A stretch of 64,000 nucleotides of DNA from Euglena gracilis (taxonomy: Eukaryota). The stretch lies in NCBI GenBank assembly GCA_039621445.1, contig CP154954.1:20322642-20386641 (forward strand). The letters are read 5' to 3'. The position numbers were made by a program, and so were the translations under genes. Shown piece by piece: positions 1 through 64,000 of the stretch; position 1 is the stretch's first letter; every line of letters begins with the position of its first letter. Under the pieces are notes generated by a model. The model did no database searches, was not told the origin of the DNA, and saw only the letters and a list, made by a program, of their open reading frames with translations.

Positions 1-224
1 TCCGAGGAGGCTCCGGGGAGGCTCCCCATGCGGCCCCCCTGGGGGCGCTCCGCGGTGGCAATGCGCTCCAGCAGGTGGCGGTTCTCCTCCGCCAGCGCCC
101 CGGAGTTCAGCCGCTCGAGGGCCGCGAGGCGGTGGTCGAGGTCCGCCTCCAGCGTGGCGTGGAGGCGGTGCTCCAGGTGGTGGATCCGCCGCACACCGCT
201 TTGCTCCCTTGGCGCACCAACCTC
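1..224 (-). CDS. GC-rich exon of an unidentified coiled-coil-like protein, runs off window
   Basis: Open minus frame EVGAPREQSGVRRIHHLEHRLHATLEADLDHRLAALERLNSGALAEENRHLLERIATAE... with strong GC3 bias. Confidence 0.7.
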
Positions 225-3300: not shown

Positions 3301-3563
3301 CAGGGGTTTTTTTTTTAAGGCCGGGGGGGCCCCCCCCCCACCCACCCCCCCACCCCATGGGGGGGGGGGGGTCCTGGGGGACCCACAAAAAAATGGCCGA
3401 AAATCACACAAAGTGCTAAAAATAGCATCCTTCCAAAATTTTTCGGCGCCGAAAAACATATCCACCCCCCTCCGGGGGGACCCCCCAGGGGGGGCTCGGC
3501 TGGACCCACGCACCCCACCCCCCCTCCCCCCTCCCCCGGGGGTCCACGACAAAAAAACCCCTG
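3301..3563. mobile_element. hAT-like MITE, family A
   Basis: TIR caggggttttttt / aaaaaaacccctg; perfect 8-bp TSD cttcggcg. Confidence 0.9.
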
Positions 3564-3784
3564 CTTCGGCGCCGGGTCACTTTAGTGGTTTTTTGCCGAC
3601 CCCCCCCCGGGGGTCCGGACCAAAAACCAGTCAGTCACTCTGAAAAAACTAGTCACCCACCCCCCCCGGGGGGGGGGGGTCGGCCAGTGACTAAGTGATT
3701 GCATAATCCTTTCTTTCGCATGATGGAATTCCCCAAAAATTGGAGAGGAGAGATCACACGGGGAAGAATTCACTCAACACCAAT

Positions 3785-4007
3785 CAGGCTTCTTTTTAAG
3801 ACCCCGGGGGGGGGGGGCGGGGACCCCCCCAAAATCGGGCCCGTTAAAGGCAATTTTCAAAAAATTTCGGCGCTTCGTGCCGAAAAGGTATACCCACCGC
3901 CTCCGGCGCGGGACCCCCTCCAGGGGGGGGGGGGGGGCCGGCCCGGACCCACCCACCCACCCCCCCTCCCCCCGGAGGGGGGGTCTTCTGACTTAAAAAG
4001 AAGCCTG
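3785..4007. mobile_element. hAT-like MITE
   Basis: Perfect 16-bp TIR caggcttctttttaag; 8-bp TSD acaccaat. Confidence 0.92.
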
Positions 4008-6457
4008 ACACCAATTTGCACAAAAAAATTGGGTTGTGACCGTTGCATTTGCATTGCGAACACAATCCTGTCCTGGTGGAATTTCCTTGAGGACGCTTGC
4101 AAAGAAGATATTTTCTTGAGATCCCATACACCAAGCCCCTCACCCCCCTCCCCGGGTCAACAACTTTTTCAAAATATCTGTTGCACTATGGATATTTCCC
4201 ACACAGGGGTTCATGCCCACGATGCAAAGTATGGAAAGGCCCCGCAGCATGCAAAAAATCATCTGCTGTGACCATGGCCACATCGTGCGTGTCCGCCTTC
4301 GGCCCAGAACAGGCCATTTCTGTATGAAACTTCATAATCAACTTCCAGCAAAAAAAAGTTCAGAATTTCAGAGTCCAGCTGATGGATTGAGGAACAGCCC
4401 GGTCCTGATATTGCCAGCAGCCCCACATGTGCAGCAGCCAGCCAACCCGCTGGCAGTGTGAAATCCTCATGTGTATGCACGAGGGCACAAGGCTGATACA
4501 CACCCCGGCTCCAGGGGTCAACCTCTACAAGGGCGTGTTTCCAGGGCTGCCTTGGGCAATTGTAATGGGACTTGACAGTTGGCTGTTGCAATCAACCGGT
4601 GCAAAACTGGACCCCGACGTTTGGGCACCTCGAGAGCAGATTTTTGCTGAAGGACCTGGGGGGTCACCGTCTAGACACTAGAGAAAAAAGCCACTGGCTT
4701 GGTCCAGGGGGCTCCCAACTGGATAAAAATTTCGGCCCTGCACGCCACGGTGGAAATGAGGTTTTACAACTGTTTTTGGCTGATTTCGTTCCCAAAAAAA
4801 ATACCAAACATGGCCAAAAACGAGCATTGTGGCACGCATCAGGGCCCTCAAAAAAATTCGGCACTTCATGCTGGTCACTGGCAGGCTATTGCTCAAAGAC
4901 TCGGGGGGGGGGAGGTGCACTGGCTCGCCAGTTTGCTTGATAATGGATAAAAGGGACCAGCTTGACCCCCTCCCCAGAGCAGAACGGGAAAGCCTGGTGG
5001 GGGGGGGGTGGTCGACCCCCCCCCACCCGGGAGTTGGGGGGGGGGGGGCGGGTCGACCCCCCCCACCCACCACAGCATTTTCATCAATTTCGGCCAACGG
5101 GGACGTTGGCCGGGGGAAATTTTTGAATTTTTTTTGAAAAACGAACCCAAAATACATGATTTTTTTATGGAAAACCACATTTTTCACAAAAAAAATCTCA
5201 AAATTTTCAGGTTGAAAATTGGTAGTTTTCAGGAGGGGGTTAAAAAAAAACAAAGCTCAAAAAAATAACAAAATTTTGGCACAGTCCAATTTTACTGAGA
5301 TTTTTTCTCTTGGAATTTTTCTGATTTTCAAAGGCTTTTTTTGCATCAAAAACCGCTCACAAGGTTGGGTTTTGTTTTTGTATTTTTGGGGGGGTCCCAA
5401 AATCGACCCAAAGATTTTGGGGGGGGGGGGTACACAAAAATCAAAATTTTGGGTCTCCATTGACGATGAGAGAAAACCACGGGAAACAATGGTCAACATC
5501 CGCAAAGTCACAAAGGGGCTGTCGCTCAGAGTTGTCCTGAACACTCCCCGTCTGCTTGAAACAGTTTCTGGCGTTTTTTTTCTCATAGTCAGACCTTCTT
5601 AGTTTAGTTAGTACAGTTTTGGATCCTGAAATTTTTTTGGGGCCACAAGGCCTTTCAAAATGCCCCAAAATGCAAATTTTCTGTTCTAGACATGTAAAAA
5701 CCCCCCAAACTGAAAATAATAGTCTGGATTCCAACGATCACCCCTTATCAGAATCCACAATTTTGTTGTACTATCCCCCCCGGTGTATAAACACCGGCCT
5801 TGTATAAGCACTGCCCCCCCCCCCCGGTGCGCTTCCATCCTTTTGGACGCGTTGGACAGGAATCCTGCATTGCATGTGGGGGTCGGTGGTTCGATTCCGG
5901 CTGCAGCCCCAGGGATTATTTAAGGCCGCACCCCCGGCGGGGAGGGGGGGTTGGGGTGGGTCCGGCCGGACCCCCCCCGGGGGGCCCAGAGGGGGGGTGA
6001 GATATACTTTTTGGCGCCGCAGGCGCAGAAAATTTTTAAAAGGCTTTTCTTGGCCAAAATCAGCCTTTTTTTTAGGTGGTTAAGGGTTAAGGGTTAAATT
6101 TTTCAAAGAGGGGGTCCCAAAAATACAAATTTTGGGTGTTTTTGGGGGGGTACCCAAAAAACAAAATTTTGGGGGGGGGACCCAAAACCCAAAACCCAAC
6201 CTTGCCGCTCAAAATCAAAATTTTGAGAAAATGTTGATATTTTGGAAGGTGTGAAAAAAATGGGGTTTTGGGGGGACCTCGTGTAAGGGTCCCAAAATGG
6301 GTCCCCAAAAAACACCCAGTGCCGGGAAGAGGTGGTGGGGGGGGGTCGACCCCCCCACCCACCATGCAGGGGGAGGGGGGGACGACCCCCCCCCACCCAC
6401 CACCCTGGCCGCGAGGCCGTTTCCCGTTCTGCCCCCCCCCGGGGGGGGGGGGTTGTA

Positions 6458-7619: not shown

Positions 7620-19035
<11,416 letters not shown>

Positions 19036-19561: not shown

Positions 19562-21572
19562 CATATATTACACCGAAAAAGAACAAATACTTCATTTTTG
19601 GTCCAATGCACAGCGACAAAAAAATCCAATAACTCCCAACTACTAGCCAAAAAAGTATAAAAAAAACAGCAATCAAACAAAAGTTCTCTTTATTGAAAGG
19701 TACGCATTTGTTTCTGTGGGGCATGAAGGCACCCAAAACGAAATGCTGAAAATGCAAGAAAATAAAAAAAATGTCGCACAGAGATTCCTTCGGATTTGGC
19801 GTAACACATTTTGGGTGCGTTTGGGGGGGGGGATATTGGCAACATTCTGTGGTTTTTTGTGTATATTGTGTATTTTTCCAGGCAAATTTTCAATTCTTGC
19901 TGAGGATCATTTTCGACATAAAAAAATTCTGCTTTTTTTTAGATTTTCTCTGCCCTTTGATTAGACAGTGTGCATAGTAATCGACACCATCACTACTATT
20001 ATTAGATATAAGTACTATACTGCACCGGGTCTGAAAAAACAAGCTCAGGCGGCGCATGTCTCACTTCAGGATTTTTTTCTTTGTCGATGTGCACAACTGC
20101 ACAAATCGACATTTTCTTCAAAAAAAACACTGAAGTGCCTAAAAGTTAGAAAACACGAAGGTTTAACTAGTTATCCTAACGAGTTGTGTGTTACATCCGG
20201 AGCGACAGATTTGTATTCTTGTCAGTCAAGAAGGCGGGTCATATACCCTGGCTGTGACGGCTATGGGTTTTGGTTTGTCCGCTCCACATGCATTGCTGAT
20301 TACTGTTTGATGGGGACCGACTTTCCACCATTTAAACAATGTGATGCGCAGTAAAACTAGACGATGATTGTGGCATAAAAACCTTTCCGGAACGCTGCCG
20401 CCATCAACGGACCGAAGTATGTCTTTACCAATGGAAAATTCACGTGAAACAAATTTATGAAGTGAGGGTTGATGTGTGCATTTGTGCACACCAACCACAT
20501 GTGTATTTTGTGTAAATGGTGGAAAATGTGCGCATTTGCACACATTGACCACTTGTGTATTTGTAGATGGTCGATGTGCATAAATGCGCACACCAACCAT
20601 CAACAAATGCACGAGTGGCTGATGTGCGCATTTGCACACACCAACTGCTTACACAAAATTTACGTGGTTGGTGTGGGCAAATGTGTGAATGGTTGATGTG
20701 CGCATTTGCGCACATCAACCACGTGTCGACATGGAGCACATTACCACATGAAACAAAACACCTGCCTTTTTTGGTTCTCGAAGTAAAGATTAGGGTGAAG
20801 ATTTTGAATGGGCACCATTGTAAGGATTTTGCACGAACCTTTGTTATACCTCCGTCCACGGAGTGACCTTCGTCCTTGACAGTCAGTTGATGTGCGCACC
20901 TGCGCACGCTGATCTTCGTCCTTGACAGTTGACATGCGCACTTGCGCACATGGACCATTGTGGACGAAAAACTCTTGAATCTGTTGTGTGGTGAAAAAAT
21001 TCTGGCTTTAGGTTATGCAAAATGTTCAGTAGAACATGGTCCATGACAGGAGAAAATTTGTTTTTAGGGCAAGCTTGTATGTCTTATCTCCAACCCGCAT
21101 GACCGGTCGTTTTCGCATCATCAATTTGGAAGTAGCAGGGGAGAAATTAATGACGTATAAACCCCCAATAATTGTTGTTGGGTTTTCTTCAAAATAACGA
21201 CTTCCAGAATTTTAAATTGCATTTTTGTTCTTCGCAGATGTCAAATTGCATGCAACCATTGGTATTCAGCACCTGGATAATTGTGCACAAAACTGGTTAA
21301 AAAAAAACTGTGGTAAAAAAAAGAGAGAACAATGATTCTCGGCCAAGGCATTAGGAAGGTTACACAGTGAGCTTTGAGCATAATGATGCTGCAATGCATG
21401 ATGCTGCAATCATCCATTTGTTGTCATGGGCAGTGTGCTCCCCCCCCCAGTCTGCCGTCCCGGGTGTGGGGGATAACATGGCCACGTCGGTGGCTGCATG
21501 CATTGGGGGGTTGATGACGACCTTCAGCTGCTGAAGCGCGATCACCCGTCGTCACCTGATGTGACTGTTGAA

Positions 21573-21859
21573 CAGGGGGTTTTTTTATGACCGGGAGGAA
21601 GGGGGGGTCCCCCCACCCACCCACCCCTGTAGGGGCCCCCAGGGGGGGGGGGGTCCCGGGGGACCCACAAAAAATGGGTGAAAATCGCGAAAAGTGCTAA
21701 AAAAAATAGCACTTTTTCAAAAAATTTCGGCGCCATCGGCGCCGAAAAGTATATCCCACCCCCCTCCGGGGGGACCCCCCCCTGGGGGGGGGGGGGGGTT
21801 CGACCGGACCCACCCACCCTACCCCCCCCCCGAGGGTCCACGGCTGAAAAAAACCCCTG
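21573..21859. mobile_element. hAT-like MITE, family A second copy
   Basis: Same TIR type and interior as 3301-3563; perfect 8-bp TSD ctgttgaa. Confidence 0.9.
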
Positions 21860-24800
21860 CTGTTGAAGCAAAATGCAAGCCAGGGGGCGAGCAGGGGGGG
21901 GTTCGAGGGTCCACCCATTGCCCAAGCGGTGCCGTTGGACGTGTGCCGCGAGGTGCAAGCGGTGGGCCACCTACTAAAGGTCTGCGGTGTCCACCTGGAC
22001 CTAGCCTGTCACTGGAAAAAAAAACGCCCCAAAATAAACTTCATGGTGGAGGAGAGCGTGTGGACCATTGCAGGTGGTGTTTGGAGTCGTTTTTGATGTG
22101 TTTTGTCTGAAATTTTATTGTTGTGGTTGGTGTGTGCAAATGCGCACGTTGTAATGGTGTGCCCATTTCGCACTCCGACGACATGCATCTTTACACATGT
22201 GGTCAGCGTGCACAAGTGTGCATGTCGACCACGTGCGCATTTGCGCAAAACTGACCACATTTTTTATTCCGACGAGGTGCTTGATACCAAGTGTTTTTTC
22301 AATGCATTTCTGTCTGTTTTCTGAGTGAGACTGCATTGTAAGACCTTCTGGTTGTTGTTGTTTCGAAAGGCTCAGGGGAGCGAGGCTGTTCATGTGCGTG
22401 ATAGTTGATTGCATCAATGTGCTCAATTTCGCACATTGACCACTCTGAGGTTACAACGGCCATAAATACCCCAGGATTCCCCGGTGGAAACGGCGCGACA
22501 AACACCATGAGTTTGGGAGAGACCATGAGGTCGATTTGCGCAAATGCGCACACCATCGATGTTTGTGCAAACCGACGTCATGTATATTTGTGCAAAGGTC
22601 GACATTCTTCCTTTATTCGAACCATGGCAATAAATCATTGCAGTGAAAGTTGTGTGATCCCCTCCCCCGTTGCATCACAACACAATCTGGAGGAACACAT
22701 CCCCGTAGAAAATTGGGTGGGGACTCCCGACCCTTCCCTCCCCTTTGGACCACTTTACCTGCACATCACTTCAACCTGTACAGGTCTTCACAAAATCCCC
22801 GGGCATGCCTCTTTCCCTGCAACCCTTCCCCCCCCCCAAACCCTGCATCCTTGTTCCCCACGCTCCAGCAAACGCCAAAAAAAAAACCAAGACCGGAAAA
22901 AATAAAAAAATAGTGTGCCAAAACCCCCCGGAGGGAGACACCACCATCTGCCGACAACTGGTGAAGAGAGCCGCAGCACCCAAACATTCCCCGTTTTAGG
23001 CCATTTAAGGCCATTTTAGGCCATTTTAGGCCATTTTAAGGTATAGGTGAGGGTTCTGGAAATCATAATTTTTCGTCAATTTTGTCCCAAAAACTGTATC
23101 ATAACGTGTGCAAACCTTCTCTTATTCAGTAATAAGAAATGTACATACAAAAAGCATGCAAAATTCATGAACAATGTATCAAAACCATGACCAACAAATC
23201 TTAATTCATACCCATAGAGGAATTCTGAACAGTAAGAAATTATGGCAGTGAAAATTTTTCAAAAAAACGTTTGACAAATATTAAAAGTTTTTATTTGCGC
23301 AACCAAAAAAGCGCCCAGTTTTTTGTATTTTGTGAAATCTACGCCATTTTGCAGGATTTCGCAAAAAGAAGCCATTTTTCTGAAAGATGATGCTGTTGCA
23401 TGGTGAAATTCAATTTGAGAGCTGAGCAAAGCTGAGATCAATTCCTCTTCTCCGTGTTTGTTTTCCCCTTTGGGGAATTCATAAACAGGAGAGAATCTCA
23501 TTCATAATTGTTTGTGGTTGTTTGGGTCACTTGATCACTCGGCGTGATTATTTGTGGTTTTGGAAAATCCCCAAAATTGTGCTGGTTCGTGATTTGAAGG
23601 AATCCCTGGTACGCAACAAAACAAATGAGCATGCACATCTTTCAATTGAGATGTTCCAACATCTTTTGTCTTTCTTTCCCTGTCTTTTTCCCCATGCTTC
23701 CAAATTTGCACTGTTTCATTATTTGCAAAACAGACATCGTTGCGCACCAAAAAAGATGGGAGTAAGAAAAAAATCCAGCTGCCCAAACCTTCAAAATTCA
23801 AATACGAAAAGAAGGTTGGGGATCATGGGGACTGATACTGATACTCGCAATGAATTGCCACCTGTCTCAAAAATTTTGCCACTGTCTCAAAGTATGACTG
23901 CAATCTTCTCAAAAGCAATTGCCACTTGTCTGATAATCAGAAAAAAAGAAGTGTCCATTGGGATGGACAGTCAAAGAAAGTCATCCGACAGCCCCGTCAG
24001 GAGGGCCCACATTTTAGGCAAATCCCTGGCCAACACATGACCCATGACCCATGACGAGCATTATTCGGATCAGACATGGATGCAAGAGAAAAAGACTCTT
24101 ATGAAACAGAAACTTGTCTTCCAAACACAACTGTCATGAGGGCATTCATTCTTGAGAAAAACGGCAATTGCTTTCAGAAATTTGTTTTGAGAAAACTGAC
24201 AATTGTTTGGAGAAAATTGGCAAGGTTGCAAGACAAATTTAGAGATAATTGACCAATTACAATTGAGAAAACTGGCAGTTATTTTGATTTTGATACATAT
24301 TCCGCAACCAGATGTAACAAAAGACACCGAAAATAATTACCTGAATGGCGTCAGTTGTTCACAAAAAAAATTGTTGTGCAACAGAATTTTTCCCATTATA
24401 GGCCATTTTGGGCCATTTTAGGCCATTTTAGGCCATTTTAGGGACCCCCACTGATAGGGCGTCAAAAAGTCATTTTGGGCCATTTTGGGCATTTTAGGCC
24501 ATTTTAGGCCATTTTAGCTATAGGTGCCTGGTTCCAGCCACAAAAAAAAATCCCCCCCAAAAAACACGTAAATCCCGGGAATGCCAAGGCCAAAAATAAG
24601 CATTCGCTCGGATTTCCTCCAACCGTGCTCCCTCTCGCTCTCACCCCTTGCAACGCCGGCGCCAATATCAGATTTTGGTCGGAGTGCGAGAATGCGCAAA
24701 AAAAAGCTTAAGTGCGAAATGCGCCGCCTAAGACAAAATCAGAAATGATTCACGCCAATTATCCAAGTAATTCATCATTAAGAGTCATCCAATTATTCTC

Positions 24801-45717: not shown

Positions 45718-46725
45718 AAACGTGTTCAGCCCGCCAAATGCCTGCCCTGAAATTCGTAGTCATGAACACGTTTTCAATGAGGGCATTTGTGGCAATGACA
45801 CGTTTTCCATTAAGGCATCTGTGTTCAGGCACGTTTTCCATTAAGGTATCTGTGGCAATGACACGTTTTCCATTAAGGCATCTGTGTTCAGGCACGTTTT
45901 CCATTAGGGCATCTGTGGTAACCCCGAGCAAGAACCAAAAATTGATGTCATGAAAAATCGGCGTGCGGTTGAGAGGCCGGGTGGTCCTCAACGGGTGTGG
46001 CGGGTCGGGGGCACTCTACAACACGACAGAAGGCTAGGTTGCCTTGGAGCACAACGACACGGAGTGGCGGACATCACGGAACACGACACGCTTTACACAA
46101 AAAAGAGCCATGCTTTGGTGGCCGCCGCAAATCTTGGCAATGAAAATGATATGCCAAACCGCAGGCGTCACACACAACTTTGTTCAGCTCCACACAATTT
46201 GGATTTTTGGGAATGGCAAAGAAGAAAAGAGGTTGCCGAACGATTCCCTGAAACGAACAAAGTTCCCGACTGCTGCTCACGTTGAGCCAGACATTGTTCA
46301 ATGACGCTCGCCTCATCGAACAACAGGCTGGGTTCCAGCTCCCATCCCGTCCAGGCAACAAAGAAATCATCCAGCTCAGGATAAGAGGCTTGCCGATGTT
46401 GACACAGTTTGGCGAACCCCAAACAGTTGGCAACAGCACAAGCTCTGCTCCCACGGAGCCGGACTTTTTCTTTGTGTTGCCCTGTGCCAGCAAGGTGCCA
46501 TGAAGGGGGTCAACCTTCGGCTTCTTGGCATCTTGCTGGTATACCGCGAGAGCAGCCAGGAACAGTTCCGTCCTAGGGGGAGGTGGCAAAAGACCATTCA
46601 CAAAGTTTGCCGTGCGTTTGGCCATACTGGGAGGGCTGCGGAAAAAAGAAAAAAAAGAAAGAAAAAAGGGGGGGGTGACACGTTTTCAATGAGGGCATTT
46701 GCGGCAATGACACGTTTTCCATTAA
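45718..46725 (-). mobile_element. Second, right-truncated copy of the PHD-bearing TTAA element
   Basis: TTAA then same TIR; collinear with 50828-51950; ORF ends VCDACGLAYHFHCQDLRRPPKHGSFLCKAC. Confidence 0.75.
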
Positions 46726-47937
46726 GGCTGTGTTTATAGCAACATGGCTTTGGTCAAAGTCTGTGTTTCTAAACACAGACTTTGGCGTGCCGAAGTCTGT
46801 GTTTAGAAACACAGACTTTGACCTAAGTCTGTGTTTCTAAACACGGACTCCGACCAAGAAAATTGTGTTCACAATATTTGGACCCGAAGCATCCCGATGC
46901 AGAAATAAGGAGCACTTTGGGGGGGGGGGTCAATTTTTGGGCTTTGGCGCCTTCGGCGCCAAGAGAAAATAGCCACTTTGAGGGGGGGGGACAAATTTGC
47001 CAAAACGGCCATTGTGAGGGAGGGGACACTTTGGGGGGGGGTCAAACTTTGGGCTTTGGCGCCTTCGGCGCCCAGAAAAAATGGCCACTTTGAGGGGGGG
47101 GGACAAATTTGCCAAAACGGCCATTGTAGGGAGGGGACACTTTGGGTCAATTTTTGGGCTTCGGCGCCAAGGGGGGGGGAACAAATTTGCCAAAGCGGCC
47201 ATTTTGAGGGAGGGGACACTTTGGGGGGGGGGGTCAATTTTTGGGCTTTGGCACCTTCGGCGCCCAGAAAAAAAATGGCCACTTTGAGGAGGGGGGGAAC
47301 AAATTTGCCAAAACGGCCATTGTAGGGAGGGGACACGTTGGGGGGGGGGGTCAATTTTTGGGCTTTGGCGCCTTCGGCGCCAAGAGAAATTGGCCACTTT
47401 GAGGGGGGGGGACAAATTTGCCAAAAAATTGGCCACTCTGGGGGCACTTTGAGGGGTGAGGGTTTTTTTTTGTCCCAAGTGGCCCAGAGGGAAGTTCCCC
47501 AAAAATATCACCACACAAGGTTAGGTTAGGTGACATCTGGTGCTCATCAACTTAAGCCTACCAAAGAACTCTTGGATCGTTGGGTGCAGCGCCCACAGCA
47601 TTCTTATCAACGTTGCAAAGTGAAACAGCAAAATGGGGTATTGAAAGAAAAAGGAGTCGATGCAATCTTGTGTCACCTTTCACGTGTTCCCCATGTTTAA
47701 CGGTAATGTTACCACTGTTTCGAAAGGATTCTAGTTCGGAAGACCACAGGCGGCGGCAAAAAAACTGCCCGGCGGCCACATATTCTTATTCCGGGGTTTC
47801 CGGCCGTCCGGGATCTGTGCAGCGGATCCTAATTCAGCTTCGCTTTGTCCAAAAATTATGTCGTCAGTCTGCCGTCCTTCGTCGAGGTTCTGAAACACAG
47901 ACTTTGACCAAAGCCATGTTGCTTTATAAACACAGCC
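46726..47937. mobile_element. TTAA-flanked GG...CC element (Kolobok-like termini) containing a ~118-bp tandem array
   Basis: TIR ggctgtgtttata(aa)gcaacatggctttggtcaaagtctgtgtttc; TTAA on both sides; inverted partial copy at 57870-58674. Confidence 0.75.
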
Positions 47938-48283
47938 TTAAATAACTGCGTCTTAAACGCAGACTCTGACCTGAGTCTGCGTTTCGAAACGGCCCGACCT
48001 ATAGTCAAAAGTCCTTTGAAAAAGGGGGGGGTAATGCGGTACAGTGGCAATTTCTGTAGACCTCCAGAGGTCGGCCCGACCTCCAGAACTAGCATGGCCA
48101 ATATTCCGCCCGGGGCCGCAATTTACGGTGACGTTCAGTGGTTTTATGTTAATTTTTGAAACGTTAATGAAATGTTAACCAGGTTTTGAATAGTGCTGAG
48201 CTCTTAAGGGGACTTGCATGTAATGGAAGGCCGAAAAGACTAGGATTCCAAACTTCACGTTTCTGATATGTTGACCCCCCCAT

Positions 48284-48742
48284 CAGGGCGGGATTGAGGT
48301 TGAGGTTTGGAAAAAAACCTCAACCTCAATGTCAACAACCTCAACCTCAACCTCAACCTCAATGTCACCTCAATGTCCAAAATTCAAATAATTGAACTCA
48401 CAAAAAGCATCGATGGGACCATCTCGTCTTGAAAAAACCTTCCTCAAAGGCAAGTTTGTCAGCTTTTCTGCCAATTTACAACATAAGTGGGTGGAAACAA
48501 GAAAAACATTGTGGGTTGGTGATTTAAAACTTGAGATAAGTGACGAACTGCCCAATTTTTGAAAAAATCCATGTAATTTGCCTCTCTTTGTAACACTTTG
48601 TTCAAAGCTTTTTGTTGTTGAATCATTTTCCTTTGGATTTTGGTGACAATTGAGGAAAGATGGAGGTTGGAAAACCTCAACCGCAACCTCAACCTCAACC
48701 TCAACCTCAACCAACCTCAACCAATACCTCAATCCAGCCTTG
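48284..48742. mobile_element. CAGGG MITE with (cctcaa)n subterminal repeats; partial copies at 44170-44840 and 58679-59008
   Basis: TIR cagggcgggattgagg / cctcaatccagccttg; 7-bp TSD cccccat. Confidence 0.8.
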
Positions 48743-50827
48743 CCCCCATACACCCCATACCCGTTTTGTTGGATTTTTTCGACTTTTTTGACGCGTTTTT
48801 GACCCATAGTCAATGTGTTGGCGGCCAAAAACGGGGCTCTGGCGGGGCGAAAAATGCTCATTTTCGGCTCAAAAACAGTTTTTCCAAGTCCGGGAGGCCT
48901 AAAAACATCGTTTTAGGCAAAAAAAAAAATCGACTTTTTTGGGACTTTTTGGGACTTTATTGACCCGTCTTTGACCCAGACTCCATAGGTTTCGGGCCAA
49001 AAACGGGGTCGGGGGTCGAAAAACGCTCATTTTCGGCCCAAAAACAGTTTTCCCAGATCCGGGAGGCCCAAAAACATCGTTTCGGGCAATTTTTTTTTAT
49101 TTTAAAAATTTTTGACCCGTTTTTGACCCAAAGTCTACTACAAAAAAGGGGTGGCGGACGCCGGTTCTGTCCAAAACCCGGCGTCCGGAACGCCGGGTTT
49201 TGGACAGAACCGGCGTCCGCCACCCCTTGTTTAAACCGGCGTTTTAGAGACGCCGGGTTCAGGACAGAACCGGCGTCCCCACCCTTCGGTCAAAGGACAC
49301 TCCCAGGACCAATCTCCGACCACTTATGTGCAATGTCACGCCACTTTGCATTTCACCAAATTCCGGCGATCGCGAGGGTATTTCTGGCTGTGTCAATCGT
49401 CCAAGTACAAACTCACCCCTCAATCGAAAGCTCTTTTCATCAGACGACTGGCGATCACCACCAAATTCAGCCAAGCCGCCTGGAGCTCTTATTTTCTGTC
49501 ACTGGGAAATCCTAATTTCACAACTCTGGTGCCCCCCGGGACCCCTCAGGTGGTTGATTCGAAGAGAAAAAACGTTTCTGTAAGGTTTATTAAGCATCTT
49601 AAACCAAAAATCACTGAAAATTACCACAAATTTCGACGAAGATTCTGGCCGATCCGACGATCGCGAGCGTATCTCGGGCTGCGTGCAACGTTAGGGTACC
49701 AAGTTACCCCTCGATCGAAAGCTCTTTTCAACAGACGACCAGCGGTGGTCATCAAATCTTTCCACGCTGCACGGTACTCTATTTCCAAATCCGGGCCAAT
49801 TTTCACCAAATTTGGATATCCACCCTAGTGGTCCCCAAATGGCAAAATTCATTGTCCTAGATGGTTGAAACAGTCATACCAGCACCTTAGGGCCACTTCT
49901 GGGCACTTTTGGTGACATTTTTAGGAATGAAAACCGGACGCCGGGTTTTGTCCGGTTTTGGACAAAACCGGCGTTCCTAACGCTGGGTTTTAGGACAGAA
50001 CCGGCGTCCGTAAAACCCGTGGGGGGGGACGCCGGTTCTGTCCTGAACCCGGCGTCTCAAACGCCGGTTTAATGGGTTTTGGGCCAAAAACGGGGCGCCG
50101 GCGGAGAGGTGTACTTTTGTCAAAAGTGGCCCAAAATGGACATTTTCCCCCAATTTTTTTGCATATTCACCCCCGATTGGGGGGTTATGGAGCCATTTGG
50201 GTGGGTTTTGACTGGTGTTGAGGTGATTTAGACAAAAAAATTTTCCCAGGGAGGGGCTTAAAAGTCGGCGGTTTTGACCAGTACATTAGAGTGGGTAGTC
50301 GGCCGACTAGTCGGCCGACTACCCAATTGGTCCGCCGACTAGTCGGCCGACCAATTGGGTAGTCGGCCGACTAGTCACCACCCCCCCCCCCAGTCCACCG
50401 TTTGGCCCTCCTCCCCCCCCCCTCACCGACCCCCTCGCCACGCCATTTTACCCCCCCCCTTTTCAGACCCCCTCGCCACGCCATGTCAGGCCCGCCAAAG
50501 AAAATTTTCTTGGCAAACCCCCGCGCACCCCTCCCCCCCCCATCCGGGACCCCCTCGCCACGCCAAAAACCCCCCCTCCCCCCCCCCTAGCCGGAAACCT
50601 CGCCACGGCGTGCCGAGTCCCCAATGTTTGGTGGAGTGTGGGATATGTTTCGGATTCCGATCCATTTCCGATATGTTTTCCCGAATTTTTTTTGGCCATG
50701 TTTCGTGGGTCCCCCGGGCAGGGCCTTATGGGGGGGGACCCCTGGTCTTAAAAAAAAAGAACGACTGTCCCCCTGAACGCACGTCGCGTTAAGGGGAACC
50801 CCACCCCCTGACGCTTTGTGATTCTAA

Positions 50828-52152
50828 AAACGTGTTCAGCCCGCCAAATGCCTGCCCTGAAATTCGTGGTCATGAACACGTTTTCAATGAGGGCATTTGT
50901 GGCAATGACACGTTTTCCATTAAGGCATCTGTGTTCAGGCACGTTTTCAATGAGGGCATTTGTGGCAATGACACGTTTTCCATTAAGGCATCTGTGTTCA
51001 GGCACGTTTTCCATTAGGGCATCTGTGGCAACCCCGAGCAAGAACCAAAAATCGCTGTCATGAAAAATCGGCGTGCGGTTGAGAGGCCGGGTGGTCCTCA
51101 ACGGGTGAGGCGGGTCGGGGGCACTCTACAACACGACAGAAGGCTAGGTTGCCTTGGAGCACAACGACAGGGAGTGGCGGACATCACGGAACACGACACG
51201 CTTTACACAAAGAAACCGTGTTTGGGCCGATTTCGAGACTTTAGAAGTCTTAAATCTTCGCCCAAAACACGGTTTCAAACAAGAACAGTGTTTTGGGCCA
51301 AGGTTTTAGGGGGGCCCAGGGGCGACCGCGGCGCCTTCGGCGCCGCGGTCCCCGCCCGTGGGCTCCCCCTAACTCTTGGCCCAAACACAGTTCTTGACAC
51401 AAAAGAGCCATACTTTGGTGGCTCTTTTGCCAAATCTTGGCAATGAAAAGGATATGCCAATCCGCAGGCGTCACAGAGAACTTTGTTCAGCTCCACACAA
51501 TTTGGATTTTTGGGAATGGCAACACCACAGAAACCACATTCCTCGTGTTTTATTGGCAGTCGGGACACAGCACGAGGCACAGGGGGTTGGTCAGGGGACC
51601 ACACATTGTTCGATGACGCTCGCCTCATCGAACAACAGGCTCCCATCCCGTCCAGGCAACAAAGAAAGCATCCAGCTCAGGATAAGAGGCTTGCCGATGT
51701 TGACACAGTTTGGCGAACTCCAAACAGTTGGCAACAGCAGCAAGCTCTGCACCTACGGAGCCAAACTTTTTCTTTGTGTTGCCCTGTGCCAGCAAGGTGC
51801 CATGAAGGGGGTCCGTCCTAGGGGGAGGTGGCAAAAGACCATTCACAAAGTTTGCAGGGCTGCGGAAAAAAGAAAAGAAAAGAAAAAAAGGGGGGGTGAC
51901 ACGTTTTCAATGAGGGCATTTGTGGCAATGACACGTTTTCCATTAAGGCATCTGTGTTCAGGCACGTTTTCAGTGAGGGCATTTGTGGCAATGACACGTT
52001 TTCCATTAAGGCATTTATTTTGTGTTCAGGCACGTTTTCCATTAGGGCGCCGTTTTTGGGGTCCGAATTTCACAAATTCGCGTTTTTGACCCCTTGCGTG
52101 AATCATGACCACGAATTTCAGGGCAGGCATTTGGCGGGCTCTGAACACGTTT
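50828..52152 (-). mobile_element. TTAA-target DNA transposon derivative (Kolobok-like) with PHD-finger remnant
   Basis: About 48-bp TIR aaacgtgttcag(ag)cccgccaaatgcctgccctgaaattcgtggtcatga; flanks CTAA/TTAA; 59-bp subterminal repeats; CGFC...CDACGLAYxFHC motif. Confidence 0.75.
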
Positions 52153-55471: not shown

Positions 55472-55543
55472 GCCCCCCGGCGGGATTCGAACCCGCGACC
55501 TACCGGTCACACGCTAACCACACGACCGCTATGCCACGGGGGG
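55472..55543 (-). tRNA. tRNA-like sequence / pseudo-tRNA, anticodon not assignable
   Basis: 72 nt; perfect acceptor CCCCCCG/CGGGGGG; T arm GCGGG-TTCGAAT-CCCGC; A box TGGCATAGCGG; T5 run downstream; anticodon arm irregular. Confidence 0.6.
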
Positions 55544-55685: not shown

Positions 55686-55974
55686 GATGTTCAGACATAT
55701 GCCCTTTATTTTGCACTTTTTCAGCCGTGGGGTGGGGGGGAGGGCTTTTTTTTGACGAAAAAAAGAAGAAATCACGGCCACACCAGCCGGTACGGGACAT
55801 ACGGTACCCGCACCGCCACAATAATGTTGCGGATGTTTGCAAGGGTCAACATCGCGCTTTTAAGTACAAACAAGTCCGGTGAGCGATGCTTTTGAGCGGC
55901 CACACCAAAGGTTTTCATCTACTCTTCAGGCCAAGTCAAACCCTGGGCCTTAGGATCTCCAGAAGCTGAAGGTT

Positions 55975-57595
55975 CCCCACACCGCAGTCAATCTTCGTCT
56001 GGATGCTGAACTTGTAGGCAATGTGGTAAGTGTGGCAGTCCAGCATGGGGGCATAACTGTTGCCAATCTGACCAGGGTGGTTCAGAATGATGACCTGAAG
56101 AAACTTGAATGTGAAAATTTTCCGCACTTCTCGGACAGAAAGAAGACCAAAGCCCTAAAACCAACCTTGTAACAGGCAGATTGTGAAAATATTCTGCCAA
56201 CCCAAGTCCTGCTGAGCGTTTGAAGAGAGGCTCACCTGGGCACAAGGTTCGGCAAATTTCGAAATTTTGGGAATTTTTCATTTCAATTGAAAAATTCGAA
56301 AAATTCGAATTTTTCGAATTTTTCAAAATCGCGAAACGCGAGTCTGGGTATTCCTAATTTACCACAACAGGCAAAGCTGCTGTGAGAGACTTGCACTTTG
56401 TGGACTGTGCAGAGAACTCTAATATTCCAGCCGGATGCAAGAGCATATGGTGAATTTGCCGAACACTCTCTCTTGGGAAATGTTCATTCTTCTCTTTTGC
56501 AGATCTCACTGACAAGAAATTATTAAAGCTTATCATGCTTGGTAATCTGGACCTGAGCATGTCCCTGCTAAACTGCTCCATTTGTTTTCATCCGGCCTAC
56601 AACGTGTGTATTTTCTGGTTCCTGTTGCTGTTCCTGTGTGCTTTTCAATGGCAAAGAACTGGCCAGCTTTGGGCCAGATGTGCTACCCCGTTTTGGACCA
56701 CATGCTGGCCAGTTTTGGGCCAGATGTGGTGGCCAGTTTTTAGGCCAGATGTGCTGGCCAGTTTTCGGCCACATTTGTGATGGCCAGTTTTGGGCCAGAG
56801 GTGCTGGCCAGTTTTGGGCCAGAGGTGGTGGCCAGTTTTTGGGGGCAGTTTTCGCACATTTGTGCTGGCCAGTTTTCGGCCACATTTGTGCTGGCCTTTT
56901 GGGCCAGATTGGTGGCCAGTTTTCGTCCACATTTTTGCTGGGCAGTTTTCGGCCACATTTGTGCTGGCCAGTTTTGGGCCAGAGGTGGTGGCCAGTTTTC
57001 GGCCACATTTGTGCTGTCCTGGCCAGTTTTGGGCCAGGCGCACTGGCCATTGGGCCAGATGTGGAGAAGGTTTGGTGCAGGGGGTTTTGGCTTCGGTGGG
57101 TTGGGATGGTCTGGGGGGGCTTCTATGGGTGGGGGGGTGTTTGGTCTTTTTTGTCCATTTTATCGGAGGGGGGCCTCTCTGGGTGGGGGAGGGGGTCGGT
57201 TTTTTGTCCATTTTATCGAGGGGCTTCCACGCAGTTGCGGTGGACTTCAATTCGTAAAAAAAACCCTGTTGCTGCGAGCAAGATTTGCCGTGGACGGGAG
57301 AAAGAACTTTATCAGAGGTGGAAAAAAACATATTCCGTGCGCAGTGCTTCACCCTGTGGAAATTTTGGAAATTTTCCTCACGAAAAATTCGAATAATTCA
57401 ACTGCGAAAAATTCGAATTATTCGAAACGGAAAAAAACGCCGAACCCTGCCTGGGCAGTGAAGTCAGCAGCCTCCTTGGCGTTGGCGTTCGAGGCCACAT
57501 AACCAATATCGAATATCCTTGAGGCCACATATCGAATATCCTTTACAGACACGTTCTTCACGTTGAAGCCAACGTTGTCGCCAAGGACAGCCTCT
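55975..57595 (-). pseudogene. EEF1A: Elongation factor 1-alpha gene fragment (domain II/III), degenerate, retains a GT-AG intron (56095-56235)
   Basis: 57451-57595 [39 protein letters not shown]; 55975-56094 [36 protein letters not shown]; internal duplication at 57491-57543, small deletions, substitutions at conserved sites, no GTPase domain seen. Confidence 0.9.
56243..57449. mobile_element. hAT-like non-autonomous element inserted at an EF-1alpha exon end
   Basis: TIR caaggttcggc / gccgaaccctg; 8-bp TSD cctgggca; subterminal aattcgaa repeats; internal 21-22 bp tandem array. Confidence 0.9.
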
Positions 57596-57869
57596 CTGGA
57601 AGGGAGGAAAGGGAAAACAAGGGAAACAGGACATTGTTTCTTAACACACCATCCACAGAAGGTTTCTGGGTCAGGAACTTCCTCATGATTCTTGAATGCG
57701 TGATGCTTGAACTGGGCAAGTCAAACCAGAGGACACGGGGCGAGTCCTACCAGGGATTTGCGTGTGTTTACGGGTGTTTCCTAACTTTCATGTACGGAAA
57801 ATGAAAGGAAAGGTTTCACAGATTTTATCTTTCTTTCAGAGCATTTTCCACGAACTGCACCACCCTACC

Positions 57870-58480
57870 CCCAGAGTGGCCAAAATTTTTTGCCGAAGGC
57901 GCCAAAGCCCAAAAATTGACCCCCGCCCCTCCCTCACAACGGCCGTTTTGGAAAATTTGTCCCCCCCCCCCTCAAAGTGGCCATTTTCTCTTGGCGCCGA
58001 AGGCGCCAAAGCCCAAAAATTGACCCCCCCCAAAGTGTCCCCTCCCTCACAATGGCCGTTTTGGCAAATTTGTCCCCCCCCCTCAAAGTGGCCATTTTCT
58101 CTTGGCGCCAAAGGCGCCAAAGCCCAAAAATTGACCCCCCCCAAAGTGTCCCCTCCCTCACAATGGCCGTTTTGGCAAATTTGTTCCCCCCCCTCAAAGT
58201 GGCCATTTTCTCTTGGCGCCGAAGGCGCCAAAGCCCAAAAATTGACCCCCGCCAAAGTGTCCCCTCCCTCACAACGGCCGTTTTGGCAAATTTGTCCCCC
58301 CCCCTCAAAGTGGCCATTTTTCTCTTGGCGCCGAAGGCGCCAAAGCCCAAAAATTGACCCCCCCCTCAAAGTGTCCCCTCCCTCACAATGGCCGTTTTGG
58401 CAAATTTGTCCCCCCCCCCAAAGTGGCCATTTTCTCTTGGCGCCAAAGGCGCCGAAGCCCAAAAATTGACCCCCCCCCCA
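57870..58480. repeat. ~120-bp tandem array, inverse of 46915-47450
   Basis: Unit caaagtggccattttctcttggcgccgaaggcgccaaagcccaaaaattgacc... about 5 copies; related unit at 32070-32370. Confidence 0.9.
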
Positions 58481-59724
58481 AAGTCCTTTGTTTCTGCATC
58501 ATTGGGATGTTTCAGGGTCCAAATACTGTGAACACAGTTTTCTTGGTCGGAGTCCGTGTTTAGAAACACAGACTTAGGTCAAAGTCTGTGTTTCTAAACA
58601 CGGACTTCGGCACGTCAAAGTCTGTGTTTAGAAACACAGACTTTGACCAAAGCCATGTTGCTATAAACACAGCCTTAACAACAAAGAGAATTGAAAAAGA
58701 GTGTTACAAAGAGAGGCAAATTACCTGGATTTTTTCAAAAATTGGGCAATTGGTCACTTATTTCAAGTTTTTAATCGGCACCCCACTATTTTTTCTTGTT
58801 TCCACCCACATATGTTGTAAATTCATAAAAGCTGTCAAATTGCCTTTGAGGAAGGTTTTAGAAGAGGAGATGGTCCAATCCATGCTTTTTGTGAGTTCAT
58901 TTTTTTGAATTTTGGACATTGAGGTAACATTGAGGTTGAGGTTGAGGTTGAGGTCGTTGACATTGAGGTTGAACTTTTTTTGAAATCCTCAACCTCAATC
59001 CCGCCCTGCGGCCGTCTAAGTTTGTGGCCTGTTTGATACGGCTTTCTGTCCCGGACCCTGACTTTGGAACGCGAACGTGTCCCATCCTCTGAGATTCATA
59101 TACCTTCGTACCCACTTTCATACACCTTTCACACACACTCCGAATAATGGAGGTTAGGCAGGGGTGGGGGGGGGCTGTGGACCCCCCCTGGTGAAGTTCA
59201 CCGGTGAACATTCACCGGGGGGGGGTACTTTCGGCGGTGAAGTTCACCGGTGAAGTTCACCGGTGAACTTCACCGTTTTGATGGTTGGGGGTGAAATTTT
59301 CATTGGTAAAATTTTGCTCCTTTCCTCTCAAAATGGTCATTTTGAGGTTGATGCTTCATGGAATTTTATCGAAATTTCCGAAAACTTGCCCAAAATGCCA
59401 TTTTTGGCCATTTTTGGCCAAAAAAGTACTCTCTTGGTGAACTTCACTGGTGAAGTTCACCGATGGGTTAGGCAGAGGGGGGGGGGGGGGGTCCGGGACC
59501 CCCCGGTGAACTTTCAAACGGTGAACTTCACCATAGGGGGGGGGGAGGGGGGTCAAAATGACCAAAGTCTACTGCTTGATCTCCAATGTATATATTATGA
59601 AAAAAACATCAGAGGTGGAACGACGACAATGCGAATGGAACAGACAGTTGGGAAATGGTAGCTTGAGCGAGTCGACGAATGGAAGGGTAAACCAGCTTCA
59701 CAACACACCATTAGAAAACAAACC

Positions 59725-61785
59725 TCAGAAGACAAGCGTCTTGAGCTCCTTCTTCTTGATCTTCAACAGCTTCATCCCAAAGGCGGTGGTCTCGACCTCC
59801 AGGTCCAGCTCCCGGACCTGGCCTGGGGGGGGGGGGGTAGTGGGCCGACCCTAGGGTCGGCCCAATAGGACCCTGGGGTCGCTAGGGTCGCTAAAGTCGT
59901 TAAGGTCGACCCCCCCCCCAGGACGTGGAGTGGGCCGACCCTAGGGTCGCCCGTCCTAGGGTCGTGGGCCGACCCTAGGGTCGACCCTAGGGTCGGCCCA
60001 CCCCAGGACCTCGCCCCCCCCCCAAAAATGTGGAGAATTTTTTGCCCATTTGAACAGGAATTGAATTTGGACTTGAGGTTGGAATCCTGGGATGATGCCA
60101 CGTGGAAAAGGCAACGAGCAAAGCCCACAGGATTGTTTTGGGGGCCAAATCACTTTTGTTGCTCTCTCTTAGAGGGCCCGAAAATAACCAAATCCCTTGT
60201 GATTCCAAGTCGTTTTTTTGGGGCAAATCCCTTGTGTTTCCAAGTCGTTTTGGGGGGTAAATCCCTTGTGTTGTTCAACTGATCGAGGGCCCCCCAAAAA
60301 ATCAAAATCCCTGTTGCAGGAATGGAATCGTCATTTTGACCACTGTAAATTAGTCGTCATTTTAGGACAGCGGGATCGTCACTGACAGCCACCCCTGTCA
60401 AACGTAGGTTCTGCGTCAAACGAAAAAATTTGTGTCATACGTACCCGTACGTTTGACAGCCGGATAGTCAAAGTAGGCTGGAGTTGTGAAGAAGTGCCGG
60501 ATGAACTGCACGCAGGATACCAGGTTCCCCAAGAAGCAAACCCTTCCAGTCGTCCCAAAACCCGGAGAAGTTTTCCACACAGAACTGCAAGAAATAGAGT
60601 TAATTTTTGAACCTCCCCCCCCCCCCGCCCAAGAAAACAAACCCTTCACACCAAAACTGGTCCCCACCTGTGGCACTAAGAGTGTTCCCAAAACTGCCCA
60701 AGATTTGGACCCAAGATGTGGGAGGGGCGGTCAAAACAAGAACGTCAGAACAAACACAGCCTTTTTCAAAAACGTTTTTGGCAAAAAACAAAAACAAGTG
60801 AAACAGCCAACGCAAAGGCATACAGCATGCAATTTACAGCAACAGGGTCCAGTGTTTTTTTGCAAAACACCACAGGACCCTGACACCTTCACTTCATTAC
60901 TCTTCTTGGTTTATCTTCTTCTTCACATTTCAACCTGTGAGCACAAGGATGACAAATGAAAGGCAACCGGCCACTGAAAAACATGACAGAATCAGAATTC
61001 AATTTGCAGAATTACAGTTTGAAGGCGAATTGGGAAAAACTGGAGCAAGAAAACACAGAATGCAAGGCCAAAATGTCACCAAAACATCAGGCCAAAGCCA
61101 CAGATCTGCAGCCAGTGCTCTGTTAAATGGCAGCAAAAGTTCCAAAACTGTAAAAAACGACCAGAAAACCACGAGAACGCTCAGAAAATGACAGGGGGTG
61201 TTCCCCCCGTGACCCCCCTGTGACCCCCCCCCCCCGTGACCCCCCCGTGACCCGAACAAGGACCCTTTTCGGCGAAATTTTGTCGGGAAAAATATTGGCT
61301 GGCGATGCCTAATTCTGGGGCAGATTCCTAATTTTGAGGCATAAATTTTTCAAATTTGGGCTTGGCGATTCCTAATTTGGAGTCAAAATCCTAATTTTAG
61401 GCGTGGGGATTCCTAATTTGTGGAATTTTTCTCCAAAATTCCGACTCGGTGATTCCTAATTTTGCCACCAAAAATGTGGTGTTCCCCCCGTGACCCCCCC
61501 CCCCCCCGTGACCCCCCCCCCCCCGTGACCCCCCCGTGACCCGAACCACCCCCACATAAAAACAGATCACACAATAGAAGACATGCCACACGAGAGGGTG
61601 GGACTCAAAATTGTCACTCAGCAGACCAAATTTTGAAAAAAATGCCACATTTTTGAAAGTGGTCCAGATGCACTAGAAAAGACCATTACAATCATTCTTC
61701 AAAAGACACCTTCAGATGGCCAACCTGCTTCAATCTTCAAAAAATCTTGCATCATTGCATTCTCATCTTCCAAATAGCTTGTATC
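59725..61785 (-). CDS. Exons of an unidentified gene: about 61725-61785, 60468-60584 and terminal 59725-59817
   Basis: DTSYLEDENAMMQDFLKIEA (CAG/GT bounded), SVWKTSPGFGTTGRVCFLGNLVSCVQFIRHFFTTPAYFD (CAG acceptor), VRELDLEVETTAFGMKLLKIKKKELKTLVF-stop; coding-like codon use. Confidence 0.5.
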
Positions 61786-61859
61786 TGAAGTTAGAAGAAA
61801 GATAAAACCCAATTCCAAAAGGGGAAAACACCCGAAGGTAAGAAGATTACGAGCGCGAG

Positions 61860-63127
61860 CAGGGTTGCATATAGGAATGTAGGGATATAGGAGATGTAGG
61901 GCTAGGTATAGGTATAGGTATAGGTTTTTCCACCTCCTATATCTCCTATATCTCCTATATGTCGTGACCAAAAACAATTTTTGGGGGGAATATGAACGGC
62001 ATTGCAAGAATTGTTTGCCCGTGTTTTTGTTGGATGCTTTATCACTTGCACCCCAAGATCACACTCTCGGAATGAACCCCTTTTGTGACAATATTATTCT
62101 TACCGTTGCCCCCAATTTGTATTGGCTAAGCAAACATCATGTTGCCCAATAATTGGCTGAATTTTCCTTTTTTTTTTCACCATCGCGGTCACTGAAGCGG
62201 CTGTGGAGCGCACTTTCAGTGTGCAAAAAGCTCCAATCCGAAATTTGTTGAATGAGAAAGTGGTGCAAGCAGTACTTTTTGTGAAGTTCAACTTGCTGAA
62301 CTTTGGTAATGAGGGCCATTCCTCACTCCCTGAGGGAGCCCAAAAAGTTTTTGTATCACGAAGATATTTCTTTTGAAGACAATCCATCCTTGGAGCCTTC
62401 TGACCTTACTGCCGATGTTGTCTCACCGTTTTGGCACTTCTGACCCCAAAAACATTTGTTTGTGTCGGTGATCCGATCAACAAGGAAGAAGAGCCATCAT
62501 TTTTGCTTCCTGTGCTCTTTCGTTGGCTCCTGAAGGCATTTACATGTGCGAAGGTTTTGCACACATAAATGCCTTCAGGAACCAAGGAAAGAGACATTGG
62601 TACACCCCTCCGAGGGGCTCGCCACGCCATTTCCCCCCCTCCCTAGCCGGACCCCCTCGCCACGCCACCTGTTACATTTTTGATTTTGCAACCATGGTAC
62701 ACCCCTCCCCCCCCATCCGAGACCCCCTCGCCACGCCATTTTCCCGCCATTCCCCCCCCATTCGGACCCCCTCGCGACAACGTGCCAACCCCCCTAAGTG
62801 ACATATAAGTGACATATTTGGAGACATATAAGTGACATATAGGTATAGGTATAACGTGACCCCCCCCCCTATATGGCACCCCCTCGGGAGCGTTTTGACC
62901 CCCCCTGGCGACTATTAGGGGGGGGTGACAATTAGGGGGGGGTTACTCAATTTACCCCACATTTCCATGGGTCCATGGGTAACCCCCCCCCCCTAATTGT
63001 CGCCCCCCCAAGGGGGGGGCGACTATTAGGGGGGGGGTGACAAATAGGGGGGGGGGTCACGTTAAGTATAGGTTGTCGACATATAGGTATAGGTCTTTTG
63101 CCAAACCTATACCTATATGCAACCCTG
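61860..63127 (+). mobile_element. Degenerate hAT transposon with dimerisation-domain remnant and nested inserts
   Basis: Perfect TIR cagggttgcatatagg; 7-bp TSD gcgcgag; 62176-62300 IAVTEAAVERTFS...RNLLNEKVVQAVLFVKFN. Confidence 0.88.
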
Positions 63128-63269
63128 GCGCGAGAACCAAGGCGCTTTGCGTGAGTCCTAATCAGCCCGTTCGTTATACAACTTTACCGATTGTCAGCCT
63201 TTTTTTCAAAATGTCAAGTAACCTGTCACACGGTGTCGTTTGTCAGGTGAAATTTGCATTCCTGCCCTG

Positions 63270-64000
63270 TTGTGTCCAAGTCGTTTTTGGGGGCCAAATC
63301 CCTTGTGGTTCCAAGTTGTTTTGGGGGGCAAATCCCTTGTGTTTTCAAATCGTTTTGGGGGGCAAATCCCTTGTGTCCTCCAGCTGATCGAGGGAACAAA
63401 AATAACAAAATCCCGTGTGTTGCCAAGTTGTTTTCCTTGTAGTTCCAAGTCGTTTTGGGGGGCAAATCCCTTTTGTTGTCCAACTGTTCGAGGGCCCCAA
63501 AGTACTCCAATTCGTTTTGGGGGGCAAGTCCCTTTTGTTGTCCAACTGATCGAGGAAACCAAAATAACAAATTTTTTTGTGTCTCCAAGTCGTTTTGGGG
63601 GGCAAGTCCCTTTTGTTGTTCAGCTGATCGCGGGCCCCAAAGTAACAAAATCCTTTGTGTCTCCAAGTCGTTTTGGGGGGCAAGTCCCTTGTGTTTTCAA
63701 ATTGTTTTGGGGGGCAAATCCCTTGTGTTTTCAAATTGTTTTAGGGGGCAAATCCCTTGTGTTGTCCTGCTGATCGAGGGCCCCAAAATAACAAAATCCC
63801 TTGTGTTGCCAAGTTGTTTTGGGGGCAAATCCCTTGTGTTTCCAAGTCGTTTTGGGGAGAAAATCCCTTTTGTTGTCCAACTGATCGAGGACACCAAAAA
63901 TAACTAGAAAATTTTTCTCTCCAAGTCGTTTTGGGGTGCAAGTCCCTTGTGTTTTCAAATCGTTTTGGGGGGCAAATCCTTTGTGTTGTCCAGCTGATCG
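63270..64000. repeat. Compound ~30/60-bp minisatellite
   Basis: Unit tcgttttggggggcaaatcccttgtg; related patches at 60120-60310 and 30890-31030. Confidence 0.9.

Follow-up and report, generated by a model that had tools for sequence, protein, structure and literature searches.

A transposon insertion with intron-like ends in the donor of a silent EF-1alpha duplicate of Euglena gracilis

The 1.2-kb insertion in an EF-1alpha-like sequence of Euglena gracilis is rated an ordinary transposon insertion. It is very likely a copy of a multi-copy, non-autonomous hAT-like element lying in the splice donor of a silent, truncated EF-1alpha duplicate, with an intron-like geometry inherited from its family and no function as an intron at this site. 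The window, that is, the whole stretch of DNA analysed, comprises 64,000 nt of contig CP154954.1 (assembly GCA_039621445.1), and all positions below refer to it. In the mechanism proposed, a non-autonomous, multi-copy element that makes 8-bp duplications would have inserted between G+1 and T+2 of a conventional donor, and its target would have been a short, truncated and transcriptionally silent EF-1alpha duplicate. A CAG start, a (C/T)TG end and an 8-bp duplication would then yield N3-CAG ... CTG-N5^R (the caret marks the cut) for any insertion of this kind.

The minus strand is the coding strand, and on it the sequence reads TTC ACT GCC CAG G, followed by CAGGGTTCGGC at the start of the element, GCCGAACCTTG at its end and then TGCCCAGG and TGAG. 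The target-site duplication TGCCCAGG is present at 57450..57457 (copy 1) and at 56235..56242 (copy 2), both on the minus strand, and the copies are identical at 8/8 positions when 57457-57450 is compared with 56242-56235. Copy 1 consists of seven exon letters and the intron G+1, the last G of copy 2 is the G of the conventional GT donor, and the point of insertion is in the old donor, between its G+1 and T+2, and lies outside the exon. The transposon itself, 1207 bp at 56243..57449 (minus strand), was delimited by the 8-bp duplication and the inverted ends, and it is hAT-like by its end features. Its 5' inverted end CAGGGTTCGGC (57439..57449, minus strand) places CAG at +4..6 of a hypothetical nonconventional intron, and its 3' inverted end GCCGAACCTTG (56243..56253, minus strand) places TTG at -8..-6; the ends are one letter short of a perfect inverted repeat, with 10/11 positions paired between 57449-57439 and 56253-56243. 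The initial annotation had given the insertion as 56235..57457 with this coding-strand reading, and its coordinates and letters are correct by sequence. It had also proposed a cut after the fifth letter of each duplication copy. With this cut, both junctions indeed read C^A, CAG falls at +4..6 and TTG at -8..-6, and what remains is ACT GCC CAG followed by GTGAG, the exact pre-insertion sequence.

Inside the element, subterminal GAAAAATTCGAA repeats were located by repeat search at both ends, with four perfect copies, two per direction, at 56289..56324 and two perfect copies plus one mismatched copy at 57382..57423. The 12-nt word occurs in six perfect copies per 64 kb, every one within about 80 nt of the element ends, and with up to one mismatch it gives 11 matches in the window as compared with 1.15 expected. 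The interior holds a minisatellite at 56659..57049, found by the same search, with units of 24-26 nt (CTGGCCAGTTTTGGGCCAGATGTG and variants) and a very high summed DNA depth. No second copy of the inverted-end motif was found in the 64-kb window at up to one mismatch besides the element's own two ends. A scan for an exact 8-bp direct repeat combined with inverted ends paired at 10/11 positions or better returned 19 matches in the window, and 30 block shuffles of the window returned a mean of 0.07 and a maximum of 1.

Other repeats were observed in the window. Two copies of a 60-bp unit with inverted ends CACAGACTT(T/A)G lie at 46766-46841 and 58559-58634 in opposite orientation, flanked by the same eight letters (TTTCTAAA/TTTAGAAA); judged from the letters, this suggests that the shared flank belongs to the repeat and is no target duplication. 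At 46305-51624, the copies of an exact 8-bp direct repeat, 5304 bp apart, enclose a perfect 11-bp inverted repeat, TCATCGAACAA; this could be a larger element, and no transposase domain was found in its ORFs. A tandem array of C/G-run units of about 110 nt (…GGCGCCGAAGGCGCCAAAGCCCAAAAATTGACCCC…) with repetitive ORFs occupies 57840-58500, just upstream of the EF-1alpha fragment.

The state before the insertion is preserved in a paralog. Four datasets were aligned to 55800-57800 at 90% likeness, namely the RNA raw-read runs X21 and X24, the DNA contigs X1, and the contigs X15, whose kind is uncertain. A contig in X1 (depth 81.8), found also in X15 (depth 14.3), joins 56220 to 57450 via 14 other letters and reads ...ACTGCCCAG^GTAAAC... 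on the coding strand, with a single TGCCCAGG, a related intron and no element. Since the same exon-intron junction is present without the element in this paralog contig, it constitutes an exact empty site. Further contigs belong to other copies: one X15 record (record 10) matches 56243-56321 with 0 differences and continues with 29 letters unlike the window, while X15 record 16 and X1 record 7 both stop at 57449 and are unlike the window thereafter. As contigs break exactly at both ends of the element, several copies of the family must lie at different sites. At least one other copy, that in X15 record 10, carries the CAAGG end that reads TTG on the coding strand, and variants at 57362-57405 are carried by 30-35 contigs. 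The summed X1 depth of the bins at the element ends is 64,000-269,000, compared with about 3,000 in the flanks, a summed depth not being a copy number; the bins 57140-57340 show a depth like that of the flanks, which indicates that the copies share their ends and not their interiors. Summed depth in the DNA contigs peaks by far in the minisatellite (56659-57049), where it reaches about 500,000 compared with about 3,000 in the flanks, so that the minisatellite motif is very abundant genome-wide and probably occurs also outside the element family. An exact metagenome match to a 20-nt element end (L001) diverges at once and looks bacterial, and it was set aside as a chance match. That the whole pattern arose by chance or from misassembly is barely conceivable: among the 16 of 3947 pieces listed no contig bridges either element-flank junction of this locus, which would favour such an origin, but only 0.07 matches are expected per shuffled window, the paralog holds the exact empty site, and the same two boundary letters recur as the ends of independent contigs.

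The element is non-autonomous, having no coding capacity in a Pfam search, in which its six ORFs of at least 118 aa gave 0 families; the whole window has 147 ORFs of this minimum length, and none of them showed a transposase domain either. Recognisable coding sequence is otherwise almost absent from the window by the same Pfam search of the 147 ORFs. Two sub-threshold Pfam matches were recorded, one to an RsmB/F methyltransferase in the minus-strand ORF 10208-10822 (26.3 bits, just below the cut-off of 27) and one to a PHD-like piece in the ORF 46077-46685.

Ac-type hAT elements are marked by an 8-bp duplication, short CAGGG/CAAGG ends and clustered subterminal repeats, the consensus of hAT inverted ends being (C/T)A(G/A)NG, and 8-bp duplications are produced also by P, Merlin and Zisupton elements. 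Here TGCCCAGG stands twice at the locus and once in the empty site of the paralog, and the short inverted ends, CAGGG and CAAGG, follow the hAT consensus. From the duplication length, these ends and the subterminal repeats, we infer an affiliation with hAT. The element resembles non-autonomous hAT elements of the Ac/Ds type in its 8-bp duplication, its short and imperfect inverted ends, its subterminal repeats and its lack of coding capacity, and it differs from them in an interior made of minisatellite and low-copy sequence and in that no transposase or autonomous partner has been identified. The description as a "hAT-like insertion" in the initial annotation stands in so far as the locus holds an inserted transposon, with Ac-like CAGGG ends and a duplication of 8 bp, and its hAT label is unproven, no transposase having been found.

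Membership in another superfamily with 8-bp duplications, be it P, Merlin, Zisupton or an undescribed one, is unlikely. It would agree with the empty transposase search of the window ORFs, and Merlin families with 8-bp duplications have been published for E. gracilis itself (PMC8101967, in the part available), so that target duplication and species are shared. On the other hand, the CAGGG start, the ends of 11-12 bp and the subterminal repeats of this element are those of the Ac type. According to the available parts of that paper and its supplement (PMC8101967), the inverted ends of Merlin elements begin with GG and extend over at least 24 bp, and the E. gracilis copies begin with GGTACTTGT and have long inverted ends. 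Membership in Merlin was rejected on these grounds, the ends of this element beginning with CA and measuring 11-12 bp.

The host sequence consists of two exon fragments with an intron between them, all on the minus strand. The EF-1alpha-like exon fragment A (57451..57595, about codons 289-331) was defined by tblastn and the direct repeats, and ends in ...FTAQ. The conventional GT...AG intron of 141 nt (56095..56235) sits at a codon position shared with the genomic paralog and the expressed mRNA, and exon fragment B (55972..56094, about codons 331-373) was defined by tblastn. In fact, a tblastn search of the 64 kb with the 446-aa EF-1alpha (P0006), with E values up to 10, recovered codons 289-331 and 331-373 only. 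Fragment A has lost 3 codons and has a private insertion of 8 codons, which is a tandem duplication around 57491-57543; fragment B has lost 1 codon and has replacements that include Cys to Tyr, and its similarity is gone past KID. Conserved cysteines are replaced in the EF-1alpha fragment. Both RNA and DNA records become unlike the window beyond about 57591-57594, and nine extra letters at 57481 are present in 598/1783 X21 RNA reads. A functional EF-1alpha gene, with about 446 expressed codons, was considered for this locus and rejected, as only about 80 codons are present, with indels, and at most 0.4% of the reads carry the letters of the locus at five exon-B sites. The initial annotation's view that the host copy looks pseudogenic is borne out by a truncated two-exon fragment with private indels in tblastn and by RNA letters that are those of the paralog. 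A tRNA-Thr(TGT) gene lies at 55472-55543 on the minus strand, about 430 nt downstream of the fragment (ARAGORN; Rfam 37.1 bits), and no RNA gene other than this one was found around the locus by Rfam and ARAGORN.

The RNA aligned to the locus comes from elsewhere. In X21, 8846/9164 aligned reads were only 90-95% alike to the window, as were 1102/1139 in X24; another 34 X21 reads were at least 99% alike, their positions within the region not being given. A letter different from that of the window was read at 56015 in 2905/2906 and 2254/2255 RNA reads, at 56027 in 3169/3173, and at 57584 in 966/967 and 1315/1315. The match of the reads to the window stops at 56008, with 5044 loose ends in X21, and at 57591, where the functional mRNA continues. 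The depth in X21 is 0 in three bins at 56135-56335, which cover the conventional intron and one edge of the element, and at 56671-57407 it does not exceed 0.67; the RNA at 56336-56670 is of low depth, bears other letters and stems from other copies. No RNA read was found over the conventional intron or the element edges in the two runs, in a sample of about 5-6% of each from which very rare transcripts could escape. A joint from 56093 to 57450, which slides by 4, was carried by 2209 X21 reads and is absent from the DNA run. Because the reads bear the letters of the paralog and the locus is silent, this joint is the exon-exon junction of the expressed paralog, not the removal of the element. 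With no reads across the intron or element edges and with paralog letters in the exons, splicing is not visible at this locus, and since the locus is without detectable RNA, the element is not seen to act as an intron here. The initial annotation had cautioned that splicing was not demonstrated, which holds: RNA-seq with copy-specific letters gave paralog reads, and no transcript of the locus was detected. Its picture of a snapshot of an insertion becoming an intron finds no counterpart in the two runs sampled, in which the locus gave no RNA. The RNA reads divide about evenly at 56092 (431/845), and 3-5% keep the window letter at 57544-57580, which suggests that the organism expresses two or more variants of EF-1alpha.

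How far the element matches a nonconventional intron depends on which description is applied. The code of Nomura 2025 (PMC12501133) was taken from the available part of the paper as N3-CDG...CH'G-N5-6^R together with pairing beyond the motif. The description of Milanowski 2016 (PMC4770533, available in part) is based on 55 natural introns, in which +5,+6 and -8,-7 are always paired and the junctions are Y^R, and CAG/CTG occurs in only 33/55. The hypothetical nonconventional intron of this locus would be 1215 nt long (56238..57452, minus strand; AGG-CAG ... TTG-TGCCC^A), a feature defined by geometry and not observed in RNA. On the minus strand its 5' side reads AGG-CAG, as the N3-CDG of the code; the 3' spacer, TGCCC^A, has five letters before a purine; and Y^R is present at both junctions. 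The minimum-energy fold of a 1235-nt RNA pairs the element ends in a 13-bp stem that includes G.U pairs, and this predicted stem supplies the pairing beyond the motif that the code asks for. At -8..-6, however, the element has TTG in place of CH'G, with fitting middle and last letters and T as the first, and the T at -8 gives a G.U pair with G+6 where the published code demands G-C. By its letters, the element is thus one letter away from the strict code, and that letter is predicted to preserve the pairing. The plus strand reads CAA...CTG and lacks the 5' side of the code. The claim of the initial annotation that the insertion already fits the consensus therefore agrees with the pairing-based description of Milanowski 2016 and disagrees with the code of Nomura 2025, which requires C at -8, both as far as the available parts of these papers go.

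Two routes by which the element could leave a transcript were weighed. That it is splice-competent as a nonconventional intron if transcribed, either here or as a same-orientation copy in an expressed gene, is improbable. In such splicing CAG...TTG would pair as C-G, A-U and G.U, and the message would be restored by cutting 3 nt upstream of CAG and 5 nt downstream of TTG. Such competence would be favoured by the geometry N3-CAG and N5^A with Y^R at both junctions, by the 13 bp over which the ends pair in the minimum-energy fold (1235-nt RNA), and by the invariable pairing of +5,+6 with -8,-7 in 55 introns of which just 33 have CAG/CTG (PMC4770533, part available). Furthermore, in the available part of PMC12501133, CGG-CTG with a G.U as the middle pair splices in a knock-in assay, 42,699/649,158 introns of E. 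agilis are of the 'CAG-nnn' type (Dataset S8), and the change assayed at -8 was CTG to ATG only, TTG not being covered (Dataset S9). Against this, every single change within CAG or CTG that was tested in the same work abolished splicing, and the code keeps C at -8; the sole RNA joint across the element bears paralog letters; and the locus is silent and under no selection. In its CAG at +4..6, its 3-nt 5' spacer, its 5-nt 3' spacer followed by a purine, its Y^R junctions, its 13-bp end stem (predicted here) and its direct repeats at the junctions, the element is like euglenid nonconventional introns, and it is unlike them in having T at -8, a silent pseudogene as host, a conventional donor 2 nt away and no removal seen from RNA.

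The other route would involve the ordinary spliceosome. As the target spans the old donor, the first duplication copy now reads CAG^GCAGGG, and a hypothetical composite GC...AG conventional intron of 1356 nt (CAG^GCAGGG ... TTCAG^G; 56095..57450, minus strand) can be drawn from the sequence, although none was observed for this locus. In this case the element and the old intron would be removed together, if transcribed, as one GC...AG intron from 57450 to 56095, which is most improbable. Copy 1 does re-create CAG^GC beside the element's own AGGG, and the correct junction of exon A and exon B, hence the same mRNA, would result. About 4% of the introns of E. agilis are GC-AG (25,777/649,158; Dataset S8 in the available part of PMC12501133), and the direct repeats of a tubA intron allow a GC-AG reading one letter away (Milanowski 2014, PMC3935182). 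The RNA sample, however, holds no transcript of the locus, and an intact GTGAG donor 1215 nt downstream would compete. The preferred reading is still that of a transposon insertion in a silent gene fragment, which the element does not serve as an intron.

The intron-like geometry is not peculiar to the EF-1alpha site. CAG-type ends together with an exact duplication of 8 bp were found in six elements of the window, namely the EF-1alpha insertion and those at 3293-3571, 3777-4015, 15143-15491, 21565-21867 and 60309-63272. The other five, of 223-2948 bp, belong to at least three different end families. The full code occurs in at least one orientation in four of the six; the EF-1alpha insertion and 15143-15491 lack it. 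If the cuts fall 3 nt upstream of CAG and 5 nt downstream of CTG, any such element is lost along with exactly one duplication copy, and the only letter of the geometry that depends on the site is a purine at position 6 of the duplication. As a CAG start, a (C/T)TG end and an 8-bp duplication suffice to give 3+5, the resemblance is inherited from the element family and not acquired at the site; the 3+5 geometry would accordingly be generic to CAG-ended elements with an 8-bp duplication. A fit to the consensus as a property of the EF-1alpha insertion, as presented in the initial annotation, cannot be upheld, being generic and better in four other elements of the window. A more far-reaching proposition is that the CAG...TTG asymmetry of the family is tolerated in that the nonconventional machinery would read G.U; copies in such an orientation would then be born as introns, those reading CAA...CTG, with an A.C mismatch, would not, and the mixed 'intermediate' GC/GT-type introns of euglenids would have one source in insertions next to a conventional donor. 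This proposition is doubtful.

A MITE-like origin of euglenid nonconventional introns was proposed in Milanowski 2014 (PMC3935182) and taken up again in Milanowski 2016 (PMC4770533), in a Mob DNA 2024 review (PMC11282704) and in the discussion of Nomura 2025 (PMC12501133), the 2016 and 2025 papers being available in part. A gapC intron that had been newly gained has an 8-nt repeat at its junctions, at the time read as the result of break repair (available part of Milanowski 2016, PMC4770533). Among the papers searched by their running text, none was found that ties euglenid nonconventional introns to hAT or to a 3+5 = 8-bp duplication. The introners of Micromonas and Aureococcus (Huff et al. 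2016, as described in the available part of PMC11282704) are alike in that transposon ends and a target duplication supply the splice sites and in that removal restores the message, which for the present element is hypothetical. They are unlike it in their dependence on the ordinary spliceosome, for which the introner contributes GT or GC and a 3-nt duplication the AG, and in a nucleosome-linked size; for the present element, with its 8-bp duplication, the candidate is the nonconventional machinery of euglenids.

Since the host is a dead and silent gene fragment, the locus cannot show splicing, and its value is that of an example and of a knock-in design. It supplies a natural variant at -8, TTG, which lies outside the mutagenesis published in the available part of PMC12501133. 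What the published work lacks is a transposon family, identified by name, that accounts for the 3+5 geometry by its ends and the length of its duplication. The locus contributes a single clean and datable insertion, from a family that makes 8-bp duplications, and the matching empty site in a paralog.
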